64,000 nt of DNA from Schmidtea polychroa (lineage: Eukaryota). How positions within the stretch are numbered: the stretch's first letter is position 1; every line of letters starts with the position of its first letter. A program made the translations under genes and the position numbers. The stretch covers positions 20,896,001 through 20,960,000 of the forward strand of contig CM097885.1 of the NCBI GenBank assembly GCA_044892525.1, read 5' to 3'. Below the pieces are notes generated by a model. The model had not been told where the DNA came from and searched no databases. It saw only the letters and a program-made list of their open reading frames with translations. This document shows, one piece after another, positions 2,438-64,000 of the stretch.

Positions 2438-45044
<42,607 letters not shown>

Positions 45045-57452: not shown

Positions 57453-58855
57453 TTAATAACATTTTTATATTTTTTTAATTAATATGAAATTTAAAAAAAC
57501 ATTTTAATATTAATTAAAATTAAATATTTGAAATTAAATCAAATCTTTACATTGTGATTTACACAAATAAATCTCAATAGATACTTGGAGGAAAACTCCG
57601 TAAACATTGCGAGATGTGTAAAAATACTCTAAAGATTTCTATAAATTATTTGTATTAAAAGAAGTATTTTGTAAAAACAATTCTTTTAAAGTAAAAATAA
57701 TTATCAAATAAAACTTTTAATTATTAGAAATCAAATTTTAAATTACAATAAAAAGTTTAATAAAATTTTATTAAATATATCGGTTTATTAAAATATAACT
57801 GAAATTAATTTAAAAAATAAGTTAAAATAAATACAGTAATTAACAATCGTATGTTGAATGTATGTATGAATATTTAAAAAGAAAAAAAAGAAAACCACCC
57901 AAGGGAATTGATCTACGAAGTACAAAGACAAGCTTTCATGCCAACAAAAGCACATTATTCCCGACGAATTGATAAAAGAATCAAACACCTATTGAGAAAA
58001 AGGAACTCAAACTAGGCCCTGGCACGAACAAGGAAACACTGAACGAAAGCGAAAACATTACAATGAACAAGGAAAGCAAAGAATTAGTAACCGACCTCAC
58101 AAATTCTTTATCCGATTGTGAAAAAGGATTACTTTCACTAGAACCAAAGTTCAGTATAAGCAGAGAAATAGATGACACAGCCATCCTCAATTTCAAGATA
58201 GTTCTTTGCTCATTGCGTACCAAATCAAATAGAACAATACGATACCTCAGGAAAATAACCAAGAAAAGCTCCCAGCATATACAAACGCAGACAAATTCTA
58301 TCATCAAAATCCTGATGCAGAATTAGATTCAACACTTTCAAAGGTTTGTCGCAAAATTTTTAAAATTAAAAAATATTTAAGCAAAAATAGTTAAATTGCG
58401 TTTATAAATAGTTATTGGAAATTATTTTATAAATATTTTAAGGTATTATTTATTAAAATAGGTTTCTAGGACCTAATTATAAAAGCTTTAAAAATTTAAA
58501 AATTTTACTTAGTGAGTTGTTTTGTATTTTAAAGGATATTTAAATAAAAAGAATTTTTTAATGTTAAATTCGTCAGAAAAAAAATATTATTATTTTTAAT
58601 CAATGATAAGTAAGAAAGGGAAATAAAAGAGAAGATCAAAGAGCGTTTTAGAAAATAGAAGAAGCTAAATCCCATGAAATTGAAAAGGGCTATCTTATAG
58701 TCGAAATTTTTTCATTTGTATTAAATATATTATTCGCAGCAAAAGGCTTAAATTATCATTTAATTGTTCTAAAATATTATTATTATTATTATTACTATTA
58801 CTATTATTACTATTACTATTATTACTATTACTATTATTACTATTACTATTGTTAC

Positions 58856-58934
<79 letters not shown>

Positions 58935-58966
58935 ATTATTATTAATATTATTATTATTATTATTAT

Positions 58967-59292
58967 TGTTTAATTCGATGTTCGGGTCTGTGTGCGCCTT
59001 TTACTATCCTTGTGTTGTTGGCTGTGGGCGCACACAGACGCATATAGTTGTGGGTGTTGTTTGGCTTTTTGTGTTCGCGTCTGTGTGCGCGGTCTGGTTA
59101 GACCGATTCTTGTGGGTGTGCGCACACAGATGCGAGAGAAATTAATGGTTGGTAAATTAAATTGATTTTGCTGGATTAATTGCTTTAAAAGGATTTTAGT
59201 GGAATTAAAAATGTTTTGGTGAAATTGTTTTACTGGGAGAAGTTTCGTTATTTGGTTCTAGAAGTTTTTTGTGATTATAATTGGAATTAACA
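58967..59292 (+). repeat. Putative 5' LTR (326 bp) of the BEL/Pao element
   Basis: Starts TGTTTAATTC right after the microsatellite and ends GAATTAACA (imperfect terminal inverted repeat, TG..CA). Followed by PBS-like tttgtttcgaaaccgga. The 3' LTR is not in the window. Confidence 0.7.
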
Positions 59293-59326
59293 ATTTGTTT
59301 CGAAACCGGACGTTGCCAATAATCAA

Positions 59327-59419
59327 ATGAATCCCGAATTGGAAGATGATACTTATACTGAACAATGCAGAAGCACAATTGGAGTTGACTTTAAAATCAG
59401 AACTATTGATTTAGATGGA
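59327..59419 (+). other. Captured Rab1 GTPase fragment (N-terminus plus switch I / beta2) at the polyprotein start
   Basis: [31 protein letters not shown] versus Rab1 MNPE...[25 protein letters not shown] (Rab1 sequence recalled from memory). Confidence 0.9.
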
Positions 59420-62400
59420 ATTATTGTTGTATATGCGAAAGGAAAAGTTCCCGATAAAATGATTGAGACGAGTTCAGCTACGAGATTGTTTAATATTACT
59501 GAAAGTACTGGAGGCGTTATGATTGGTATGATCCCTGATTGTCGATCTCAAGTATGTCGTGCACAAATGGAAGCAGCTCGATTTAGATATAAACATGGAT
59601 ATGAAATGCCTTGCGACAGGATATGGCGTTCTATGGCGGATATGGCTCAATTCCATTCCCAATCGGCACCAAGGCGGCCATTAGGATGTTCAATGATGGC
59701 GGTATCTTCGATTATAGACCTGGACAAATTGTTATCCAAAAATAAAATCATTGTTCGCGATATTGACTTTAAAAATGAACATGGTAGCAGAGCGTGGTTT
59801 CGGCTAGCCAGCCGGAACAAGGTAATTAATATGTATTATAAAATGTCTTTTTTGGTTTTATATATATTATGTAAATATTATGTTTATTATGTGTTTAATA
59901 ATATTTTTGTAATTAATAATATTTTGGTAATTAATATGTATTATAAAGAATCTTGTTTGTGGTCACGCATATTATGTATATATTATAATACTTTTGTAAA
60001 ATTAAACATCCTCCCTTCCCTACCGAGCGTGGGAAAGTGCTGCTATGGGCCCCAGCACTCTTTTAAAGGGGGAAGCCAGGGGAACAGGGTAAAGAACAGA
60101 GCTGAGTCAAGGGTGAGGGCGAGCGGGGTAATGGGTTTTGAGTTGCGATGGGAAAGTCAAATATTTGTCAAAACTCTTACTGGTAAGACAATTACTCTGG
60201 ACGTTAAATGGAAGGACACAATTGAAAAGATAAAAGGAAAAATCCAGGACAAAGAAGGAATTCCGGAAAATTATCAAATGTTAGTATACGCAGGAAAGCA
60301 GTTAGAAAATAAAAGAAGATTGAATGATTATAGGATACAAGTAAGGTCGACACTTCATTTGTCACTCAGGCTGTGCGGGGGCAATGACGAAGAGATTTTA
60401 GAAGAAGGACTGTGGAAAAAGAGAATGAAAAAAGGAAAATTAACGAGATTAAGAAACAAGATTCTCAATGATATAAATGGGAAGGATGTTAGCGAATGGT
60501 TGGCGGAATATGAAGATCAAAAGGAGAGTCTAGATGAAGAATTAGGGGATCTGAGAACAATCAGTAAAAAATTGCAAAGATTGGACATCACTGCAATCTT
60601 AGATAAAGACCTGCAAGAGATCGAGGAAAAACATCAAATAATTGGGGCATTGATGGAAAGAAAAGCAAATCAATCTTTTATGGAAGAGAAGGAAAATGTG
60701 AATGATGATACCATCAAGAAGAATAATTCCGGGCATAAAAGAAAACTGGAAAGTCTACAGAAAATTACAATCCCTGTTTTTGAAGGCAAGATGAAAGAGT
60801 ACGAACCATGGAAAGCAGCTTTTACTGCATGTGTTGACGAAGCGGAAGGTGATGAGGTTGAAAAGATGTTTCACCTGCACAAGTACCTTCACGGAGAGCC
60901 ATTAAAGTTAATTGAAAATCTTGGATATTCGGCAGAGGCTTATCAAATGGCAAAAGAGAAGTTGGATAGGCGATATGGTGGGGATGAAAGGATATATTTA
61001 TCAATGTTAGAGGAGATGGAACAGTTCAGGCCAATTCGAGAAGGAGATTTGAAGGATCTAGACTCATTTGTTGGATTATTAGAAACGGTCACCGTGCGAT
61101 TTAAATCCACTGGGAAAGAATCCGAGTTAAAGACTGGCTATCTTTTTCAAAAGTGTTTGGGCAAGTTAACGACGAATCTTGTGTATAAATGGAAAAAAGA
61201 CAAAATAGAAAAGGAATTGCGGGAGACGATAGAGGATTTGAGAAGATGGATACAACAAGAAGCGGAGATCCTAAGGTCCACTAACGAGGTTGTGTATGGG
61301 ACTAAACCAAGCACCAGGGCTTATGATGGGTCAAGAGTAGAAGGGGTGTCTAGGGGAAGAGAAAGATTCAATCCTGGAGGTCGGACGCATTTTACGGGGC
61401 AACCAGATGGCAGAGTTAAAAGTGGAACAGTTATACAGGTGAATAACTCTAACGGCTATAGATCAGAGTGTGTACACTGTGGTGGTCAACATTACCTAGA
61501 CCAATGTGACAAGTTCAAGCAACTCACAATTCCTAAAAGGAAGAAAGTCATCGAAGAAAAGAAACTGTGCAGGAATTGCTTTAAAAGAAATCACATGGCC
61601 AAGGAATGTCGTAAAGAATCTTTCTGCAAGGTTACCGGATGTAAGCAAAGGCACAACGAATTATTACATGAAAGACAAATTAGTGAGGAGAGCGAAAAAG
61701 GTAACAACACGATGCTGACCCAGAAAGGGATGAACGAGAAAAACCTAAGACCTTACCTTAGTTTAAGAACAATTCCAATCTACCTGGAAAATGGGAACAA
61801 GAAAATAAAAGTCAATGCACTGTTAGATGATGCAAGCTCAGTAAGCTACATCAATCTAAGAATTTTAAAGGAGCTTGGGTTAAAAGGGGTGGAAAAGAGG
61901 ACACCGATAGGGGTTATCGGAGGTAATGTCCAACAAATGATGGCTACTCCAGTGACCATGAAGTTAATTAGTAATGACGGCCGATTGACGAAAAACTTCA
62001 ACGCACTGGCCGTAACAAATATCACGGGAGAAATGAAGGTAGTAAATTGGGCCAGAGAAAAACATAAGTGGACTCACCTGAAGGGCATCCATTTTCCGAT
62101 GCTAGACGAGAGACAGGCAGTTGAAGTGTTAATTGGCGCGGATTATTTAACGCTTCAACGAGCACTCAAAGAAATCGATGGTAAGTTGGATGAACCGATT
62201 GCCCGTTTAACGCCACTTGGCTGGACATGTGTGGGAAGAACCTCGGTGGGAAGAACTTGGAACCATCAAAGCAATTTCATACGAACGTTCTTCGGTAATG
62301 GCGAGGATTTGCAACGACAGATGGAGCGATTTTGGGAAATTGATGATAGCGGCTTAAAGGAAAATATATTTGCAGCGAAAGACCAAGCGATTTATGAGAA

Positions 62401-64000
62401 AACCAAATCTGAGATGAAGAAAGTAGACGGACATTTCGAGGTAAAAGTGCCATGGAAAGAGTCACCAACAGCTTTGCCCAATAGTGAAAAAATGGCAGAA
62501 AGTCGACTGCGAAGTTTGGACAAGAGGCTTGAAAAGGAAGACTTACGAACTGAGTATCAGGATATTTTGAATGGTTACCTGAAAAAAGATTATATAAGTA
62601 TTGTAAAAGAGAAAATGATGCCTGGAGATTCGGAATGGATATTACCACACTTTCCCGTGGTTAGAAGAGATAAGGACACCACGAAAGTGCGTATTGTGTT
62701 TGATGCGGCAGCCAGGTGTAATGGGGTGGGACTTAATGATATGGTGGAAGTTGGCCCAAAATTACAAAATGAAGTTTTTGATATTTTAATTCGTTTTCGT
62801 CGATTTTCCGTAGCTGTTGTTTGTGATATAGCAGAAATGTATCTGCAAATAAGAATGGCTCTTGAAGACAGGAAATATCATCGGTTTTTATGGTCAACTG
62901 GGGGGAAAATTATTAAGTATGAGTTTAATCGGTTAGTGTTTGGTCTTAATGCATCTCCATTCCTTGCCCAGCTAGTCGCGCAAGAGAATGCAAAGAAATT
63001 TGAAAAGGACTACCCAAAAGTGACAGAATCTATTTGCAAGTCTACGTATATGGACGACACCATGGACTCTGTTGATTCTGAAGAAGAAGGAATGAGGCTG
63101 AAAGAGGGGCTAGAAACAGTTTGGGGCAATGCCGGAATGCGGCCTAGAAAATGGCTATCCAACTCGGAAAGAATTATGGCGACAATCCCAATTGAAGAAC
63201 GAGCTAAAACACTGAATATTGAAAAGGAAACGACAATGGCCGTCAAGACCCTAGGTTTGAAATGGTACTCGGAAGACGATGAATTTAGTTTTCAAGTAGA
63301 TCTGCCGAATGAGGAATGTTTATCGAAAAGAAAGGTATTGAGCATAGTGGCAAGAATCTTTGATCCATTGGGACTGTTAGGCCCATTCATAATCATAGGG
63401 AAAAAGATTATTCAGAAGTTGTGGTTGTCAGGGCTTGATTGGGACGAAAAGCTACCTCCAAAGTTGAATAAAGAAATACACAAGTGGGTAGAGGACACAA
63501 ATAATCTCGGAGATCTGCGAATTGCGAGATGTTTAAGGACTCAAATGAAAAATGAATGGCAATTACATGTCTTCTCCGATGCGTCAAGCACCGCATATGG
63601 GTCAGCTATATATCTACGGGAAGAAACTATGGTGGGACCTAAAAGTGTGTTAATTGCGTCAAGGGCAAAGGTAGCTCCAGTGCAAATTATAAGTATACCA
63701 AGGTTGGAATTAATGGCCGCGTGTACTGGAGTTAAATTAGCAATACGGGTTTCAGAAGTGCTCGGGAAACCGATGAGTGAGATATGGTTCTGGTCCGATA
63801 GTAAAGACGTAATACATTGGGTTCGAAATTATTCGAGACTATTCAAGCCATTCGCAGCTAATCGAATTGGGTTCATTCAAGAAATGACCAAACCTGGGCA
63901 ACGGCATTATGTTCCAACAAGTGAAAATCCATCGGATTTGATCACAAGAGGATTATCGGCATCGGATTTGATAAACAGCACCATGTGGTGGGAGGGACCG
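59327..64000 (+). CDS. BEL/Pao polyprotein, at least 1558 aa and open at the window end: Rab1 fragment, proteasome alpha-6 fragment, hydrophobic linker, ubiquitin, Gag, protease, RT, RNase H
   Basis: ATG at 59327 after an in-frame TAA at 59288. No stop seen in hand translation, and the track lists no stop-terminated ORF in this frame. Motifs: [11 protein letters not shown]...W..F (Gag, ~60755); [13 protein letters not shown] / [14 protein letters not shown] / [15 protein letters not shown] (~61470-61670); [12 protein letters not shown] (protease, ~61817); [27 protein letters not shown] (63047-63058); [21 protein letters not shown] (RNase H). Confidence 0.93.
59420..59707 (+). other. Captured proteasome subunit alpha type-6 (PSMA6/alpha1-like) internal fragment
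   Basis: [84 protein letters not shown] aligns without gaps to PSMA6 [84 protein letters not shown] (recalled from memory). Confidence 0.92.
60155..60382 (+). other. Complete 76-aa ubiquitin-derived domain immediately upstream of Gag
   Basis: [76 protein letters not shown]; 53/76 identical to canonical ubiquitin by my hand count, no gaps, terminal GG kept. Confidence 0.96.

Follow-up and report, generated by a model that had tools for sequence, protein, structure and literature searches.

In the pestiviruses BVDV Osloss, CP1 and CP Rit, captured host ubiquitin lies directly before the viral protein that is released; one or two units are present, sometimes with a host peptide in front or with the first residues missing, and host hydrolases have been demonstrated to give the viral protein its authentic N-terminus (PMC8310069, PMC13517609). 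The ubiquitin of CP Rit, for example, lacks its first three residues and follows a piece of S27a, and is cut by host hydrolases to yield authentic NS3 (PMC8310069). These inserts are recent and near-identical to host ubiquitin, and they arise repeatedly in short-lived viruses. A host counterpart is found in Fubi-S30 (FAU) and the ubiquitin-ribosomal fusions. Fubi, part of a host housekeeping gene, is a diverged N-terminal unit that keeps its Gly-Gly and, in the surveyed species, also retains P47/V40 and ends in RxLGG; the human protein has a non-polar residue 74, a hydrophobic I44 patch and hydrophobic residues at the R42 and Q49 positions, changes that exclude most human USPs yet permit USP16 and USP36 (PMC10611586). 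Among LTR retrotransposons, BEL/Pao elements, including Sinbad/Flow-like relatives, have LTRs, a primer-binding site (PBS), a polypurine tract and a single Gag-Pol frame with DUF1759, protease, RT, peptidase A17 and integrase. The giant Gypsy elements of planarians, Burro/GYPSM1, encode a polyprotein with captured host domains, including an internal Ubi2/SUMO-like motif (PMC6431247), and in LTR-mediated retroposition host mRNAs are captured between the LTRs by template switching, giving multi-gene chimeras with a sense and in-frame bias (Tan et al. 2016, PMC5131818).

The element described here lies in a 64,000-nt stretch of the Schmidtea polychroa genome (the window; GCA_044892525.1, contig CM097885.1, positions 20,896,001 to 20,960,000), and all of its features are on the forward strand. 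It is a young BEL/Pao LTR retrotransposon, with paired TG...CA LTRs, a PBS and a polypurine tract. The 5′ LTR (58967..59781) is 815 bp long, and the 3′ LTR, which sits outside the window, differs from it by 1 base. The PBS (59782..59799), which we take to be that for initiator tRNA-Met, is translated through in frame. A single frame encodes Gag (60383..61615), comprising an N-terminal helical region, DUF1759 (60779-61198) and a zinc knuckle (61565-61615), followed by Pol (61796..64000), in which Pfam recognises a DUF1758/aspartic protease, RT and the Pao peptidase A17/RNase H; Pol extends past the window, and beyond its end an in-frame stop precedes the integrase in this copy. The element landed in an (ATT)n microsatellite (58760-58966), which makes its 5-bp target duplication, ATTAT, uninformative. 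A direct-repeat scan of the window gave only microsatellites, apart from a dispersed repeat of ~480 bp whose two copies (25103-25584 and 39220-39763) are 95% identical and which recurs in part at ~8814-9001.

Related copies are abundant in this genome. The 601-bp junction gave 457 candidate matches, the 40 scored ones being 97–100% identical, and an exact 22-nt PBS word occurred 237 times (an earlier, narrower PBS pattern had matched only 12 times). We assembled a sample of 127 distinct elements from the window's 30 top-scoring matches, the PBS-bearing loci among the 30 best PF00240 loci, and 90 PBS loci (88 of them among the first 100 in the list and 2 via the narrower pattern), after removing 5 loci retrieved twice. 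It comprises 71 elements of the window's own family (family A), 44 of a second family (family B) and 12 that are truncated or unassigned, and it is skewed toward chromosome C1 and toward good copies.

Directly before Gag lies a diverged ubiquitin unit of 76 residues (60155..60382), which matches PF00240 at E 7e-24 as well as PDB ubiquitin, and is identical to host ubiquitin at 53/76 positions. It offers the complete ubiquitin fold with Gly-Gly immediately before Gag, as in the pestivirus inserts. Comparison with host ubiquitin bore out the preliminary description of a full-length unit that keeps G75-G76 and K6, K11, K27, K29, K33 and K48 and is followed in frame by NDEEILEE, which leads into the BEL/Pao Gag-Pol; the six changes it had listed (M1S, R42M, I44V, K63V, V70S and R74C) are all present, as a subset of 23 differences. 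One further difference, E64R, is private to the window copy, since the 29 other best copies differ there. At the DNA level the family-A unit is 70% and the family-B unit 96% identical to a unit of host polyubiquitin, in keeping with derivation from host ubiquitin mRNA. Between the window unit and the nearest host unit we obtained dS ~1.75 and dN 0.23 (dN/dS ~0.13), which argues that the unit is old and has been under purifying selection; its sequence marks it as host ubiquitin that was captured and has since become worn. An AlphaFold prediction made without an alignment reached a pLDDT of 38.7 and was set aside.

The ubiquitin unit is not the N-terminus of its frame, which is open from 59291, within the 5′ LTR, and through the PBS. 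Inside the LTR, an ATG-started ORF without a stop of its own (59327..59781) carries a Rab1 fragment (~59342-59428) fused to a proteasome alpha-6 fragment (~59423-59704), and other copies carry instead pieces of a DUSP-type phosphatase (DUSP12), adaptin/coatomer, EAP30 (ESCRT-II) or CCT, or unassigned pieces. Families A and B have cargo types in common. Between PBS and ubiquitin, an AT-rich leader (59800..60154; last in-frame ATG at 60131) varies in length but not in frame: among copies with ubiquitin located, it is in frame in 59/73 of family A and 36/45 of family B, with 20 or more different lengths. An ATG-initiated ORF of at least 100 aa ended stop-free in the ubiquitin/Gag frame in 87 of the 127 elements and in the other two frames in 2 and 0, a control weakened by the LTR-end sequence that the copies have in common; from the cargo ATG to 30 residues beyond Gly-Gly, 55 of 115 family-A and family-B copies are open. 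With 250–350 arbitrary residues ahead of Gag-Pol, there is a reason for a removable linker. The hydrophobicity of the leader (Kyte-Doolittle, 19-mer) ranged from 1.0 to 2.5 across copies, with 1.37 in the window, and the idea of a membrane anchor was dropped because these values vary too widely. Proteasome alpha-6 also occurs in this genome as many dispersed, intronless, decayed copies with no PBS nearby (80 PF10584 matches), which probably represent retrocopies or solo LTRs. Among 12 loci, none could be identified as the host proteasome alpha-6 gene, and we thus do not claim a spliced-mRNA origin for the cargo of the window.

The likely poly(A) signal of the LTR, an AATAAA at 59741..59746, recurs within the final 80 nt of the LTR in 112/127 elements (control windows, 5–17). 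Its place near the LTR end suggests that U5 is short and that the cargo lies 5′ of it, probably in the R region. Across the 127 elements the AATAAA stands ~35–53 nt short of the LTR end, and 40 nt beyond that end there is a conserved splice-donor-like site (59741-59827 in the window). Since this donor-like site 3′ of the PBS (59819..59827, cut point 59821/59822, phase 0) is accompanied by in-frame splice acceptors at 60055 and 60079, a spliced in-frame form is possible, and the ATG at 60131 could start a shorter form; with either, ubiquitin would still precede Gag. By analogy, a U1-type block of 5′-LTR polyadenylation, as in HIV, would account for a donor that goes unused in splicing. The stretch is not present in any public run recorded as RNA. 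Contigs from public runs whose RNA status is a guess span the leader-ubiquitin and ubiquitin-Gag junctions of family A with the leader unspliced, and a synonymous change at 60379 is present in contigs of three such runs. A donor-to-acceptor joint was not seen in the public contigs matched to families A and B, although contigs cannot prove its absence.

We then compared the copies at the junction with Gag. The tail of the window unit, LRLCGG (60365..60382), ends in G75-G76 at 60377-60382, and a deubiquitinase would be expected to cut at 60382/60383. In family A, residue 74 is C in 70/70 covered copies, in place of the R of an intact LRLRGG, and R72 is likewise kept in 70/70, whereas family B has G72. 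The preliminary description had proposed conservation of Gly-Gly across copies as a check on a processing role, and the pair indeed held, in 66/70 family-A copies and in 38/40 at the Gag junction of family B, with every loss confined to a single copy. Variants shared by at least two family-A copies, counted after merging ten suspected duplicates, comprised 5 synonymous and 0 non-synonymous changes in residues 71–76, compared with 13 and 24 in the ubiquitin body (Fisher p 0.010) and 28 and 35 in Gag (p 0.023); the shared tail variants also differed from tail singletons (2 synonymous, 5 non-synonymous; p 0.028). These p-values are optimistic, given the small counts (5 tail events) and the relatedness of the copies. 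G75 is encoded by four synonymous codons, which argues against constraint at the RNA level.

Family B, whose Gag is 33% identical to that of the window family over 270 aa, carries two ubiquitin units, the first near-host and the Gag-proximal one ending LGLAGG|SPVSD. In 4 copies, unit 1 and the first half of unit 2 (~340 nt) are 86–100% identical to units 2–3 of a host polyubiquitin gene, whereas the last 114 nt of the Gag-proximal unit are only 60–72% identical, a split which argues that the family captured ubiquitin afresh from the host but retained its old Gag-proximal tail. Gly-Gly is kept in 35/42 copies at the internal junction, and its loss there compared with the Gag junction (7/42 vs 2/40, p 0.16) is not significant alone. 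G76V is common to 4 family-B copies at the internal junction and is never shared at the Gag junction. Many family-B copies have IRGG just before the first ubiquitin (in the leader, e.g., L074 and L056), which may be left over from the tail of another ubiquitin. The internal part of one copy is ~3.5 kb, and the two long frames analysed (L153:1888-5358 and L156:1846-4731) hold di-ubiquitin and Gag, followed by no more than a protease; Pfam found no RT in these two frames, which end in an acidic low-complexity region, and family B is likely non-autonomous.

These junctions bear on whether the unit is removed or stays attached, tuning Gag-Pol as a UFD-type degradation tag, a ubiquitin-receptor decoy or a folding aid. 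An attached domain would fit the purifying selection on the ubiquitin body (dN/dS ~0.13) and the retention of K29 (65/66) and K48 (67/69) in family A, and most human USPs are blocked by changes like R74C together with R42M (PMC10611586). Yet a domain that is not cleaved would have no need of L73 or Gly-Gly, which are the invariant tail positions; G76V, which blocks cleavage, spreads at the internal junction only; and the I44/V70 patch that a decoy or receptor-bound tag would use is eroded in both families (I44V/V70S in one; I44N with Q49V or I in the other). We therefore regard permanent attachment as rather unlikely.

Similar arrangements occur outside these two families. Of 162 Gag relatives, three carried a ubiquitin domain immediately ahead of Gag, and one more starts with a ubiquitin tail, whereas 15 further relatives had no ubiquitin, so that overall 4 of ~175 carry the unit or its tail. 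Gag-only and alignment-based homologue searches returned 26 BEL/Pao proteins, 0 of them with ubiquitin; a search with ubiquitin plus Gag returned mostly polyubiquitins and was uninformative. We compared six lineages, namely family A (LRLCGG|N), family B (LGLAGG|S) and the four public proteins P0133 (LKLRGG|G), P0270 (LNLYGG|S), P0153 (FKLKGG|S) and P0176 (MRLKEG|N), the last of which has no Gly-Gly and a tail that looks degenerate. L73 and G76 are invariant in 6/6 and Gly-Gly is present in 5/6, while residues 72, 74 and +1 vary freely between lineages. Purifying selection acts on the tail at L73, G75 and G76 as well as on the unit as a whole. Upstream of its ubiquitin, P0270 reads through a PBS-like GSRA and contains a fragment of HSP90, which suggests that the cargo-ubiquitin-Gag layout exists beyond this genome; in P0153 there are CCCH zinc fingers along with a CFAP58-like coiled coil. 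Gag trees, built mostly from unnamed proteins, group the six ubiquitin-bearing rows (2 changes, with 0/500 shuffles as low), but a single clade is marginally rejected (p-AU 0.038, from a quick tree with long branches), and we do not claim one origin of ubiquitin-Gag.

This distribution also weighs on whether the ubiquitin is carried along neutrally, as the changing LTR cargo is. These elements do capture many pieces of host mRNA, and the copies are young and near-identical. A passenger, however, would not be expected to combine saturated dS with low dN, to occupy the same position in lineages whose Gag proteins are only 22–42% identical, or to show an excess of synonymous shared variants. The selection estimate and the conserved position across lineages largely refute it, and we consider it highly improbable.

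The residue after Gly-Gly tells less. The preliminary description had suggested that cleavage would expose an N-degron, and had proposed conservation of +1 as a check. Within family A, Asn is indeed kept at +1 in 68/69 copies and the host has an NTAN1 gene, whose product converts N-terminal Asn to Asp in the Arg/N-degron pathway (PMC11441550). Across the six lineages, though, +1 is N in two, S in three and G in one, so that four of six have S or G, and at +1 to +4 neither family has a shared variant of any kind from which selection could be read. Moreover, unmodified N-terminal S and G are degrons of the separate GASTC pathway (PMC11441550), and nearly any +1 residue could thus be labelled a degron. 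The S or G in four lineages and the lack of shared variation leave an N-degron as at most a family-level side effect, and we hold it distinctly unlikely that cleavage serves to expose Asn and have Gag-Pol degraded through the Arg/N-degron pathway.

Whether such tails can be cut was a worry raised in the preliminary description, according to which R74C and the altered I44 patch might block cleavage. The worry is probably misplaced, since Fubi has changes of the same kind. Fubi-like changes recur in family A (R74C with R42M/T), in family B (R74A with Q49V/I and I44N) and in P0270 (R74Y), and the single S30 gene of the host has a Fubi-like domain ending PLEGG, which argues that arginine-free tails are likely cut in this host. 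If S30 is released here as in human cells, the host would have an enzyme that cuts an L-x-G-G tail without either arginine. That CP Rit ubiquitin is cut argues that M1S and an N-terminal extension are no obstacle. Cleavage could nonetheless be slow or partial, because the same changes block most human USPs (PMC10611586).

Alternatively, Gly-Gly may do no more than link the domains flexibly, or may be cut by the aspartic protease of the element, with host deubiquitinases uninvolved. The element does encode a protease, and the typical deubiquitinase contacts R72 and R74 are not kept. Retroviral-type proteases, however, favour hydrophobic residues at the cut, unlike Gly-Gly, and neither the purifying selection on the whole ubiquitin fold nor the re-capture of ubiquitin would be explained. 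We give this alternative little credence.

We consider it fairly probable, on sequence evidence, that the unit is a Fubi-like linker cleaved by host deubiquitinases, which releases Gag-Pol from arbitrary cargo. The processing signal first suggested for this site thus gains support from the retained Gly-Gly, the exclusively synonymous shared changes in the tail and L-x-G-G in 5/6 lineages. Translation would start at the cargo ATG inside the LTR and produce one chain of LTR cargo, ubiquitin and Gag-Pol; a host deubiquitinase would then cut after Gly-Gly, and Gag-Pol would always be freed with the same N-terminus, irrespective of the cargo ahead of it. With residue 74 non-polar and the R42/I44/Q49 surface altered, cutting would be limited to Fubi-type USPs (USP16/USP36-like) and the unit would be less active as normal ubiquitin. 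R72 is the gate for E1 (Uba1) (PMC3731359). It is conceivable, although we think it unlikely, that the ubiquitin linker turns the LTR into a working expression cassette from which deubiquitinases release a cargo-ubiquitin protein that acts on host proteostasis, and that the family-A piece, with R72 and Gly-Gly, could even be E1-activated and conjugated to proteins of the host, serving as a modifier made by the element. The cargo pieces relevant to such a cassette are Rab1, proteasome alpha-6, DUSP12, ESCRT-II, CCT and coatomer.

If the unit is cleaved, a lineage of LTR retrotransposons would, independently of the pestiviruses and over long evolutionary time, have domesticated host ubiquitin as a linker that removes itself. 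This would explain how host coding pieces can be continually swapped into the LTR without harm to Gag, and would identify a step, carried out by a host enzyme, that an abundant transposon family relies on. The diverged L-x-G-G tails, in which residue 74 is C, A, Y, K or R, would then form a natural series for studying deubiquitinase specificity.

In the literature we covered, with Repbase Reports, subscription journals and supplements outside its scope, we found no account of ubiquitin fused to a BEL/Pao Gag, and the word ubiquitin occurs 0 times in the main text of a BEL/Pao survey (PMC3118150). The element shares its LTRs, PBS, polypurine tract and Gag-Pol frame with known BEL/Pao elements, but differs from them in the ubiquitin before Gag and the coding cargo inside the LTR. 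As in LTR-mediated retroposition, host coding pieces have been joined in sense and in frame; the retrocopies of Tan et al. lie between the LTRs, whereas the cargo here lies within the LTR, is copied whenever the LTR is and continues in frame into Gag (PMC5131818). Burro/GYPSM1 likewise carries captured host domains, but belongs to another superfamily, and the available text describes no Gly-Gly processing role for its motif (PMC6431247). With Fubi the unit has in common the retained Gly-Gly (PMC10611586), a non-polar residue 74 and a hydrophobic residue 42 only; it is fused to Gag, the units are 70–82% identical to ubiquitin and family A keeps Q49, which points to convergence with Fubi rather than membership. 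Closest are the pestivirus inserts, in which captured host ubiquitin likewise sits directly before the protein to be released and may follow a host peptide; cleavage is demonstrated there and is deduced from sequence for the element, whose unit is, unlike theirs, old and diverged, shaped by long-term selection, and placed in an LTR retrotransposon downstream of swappable cargo.
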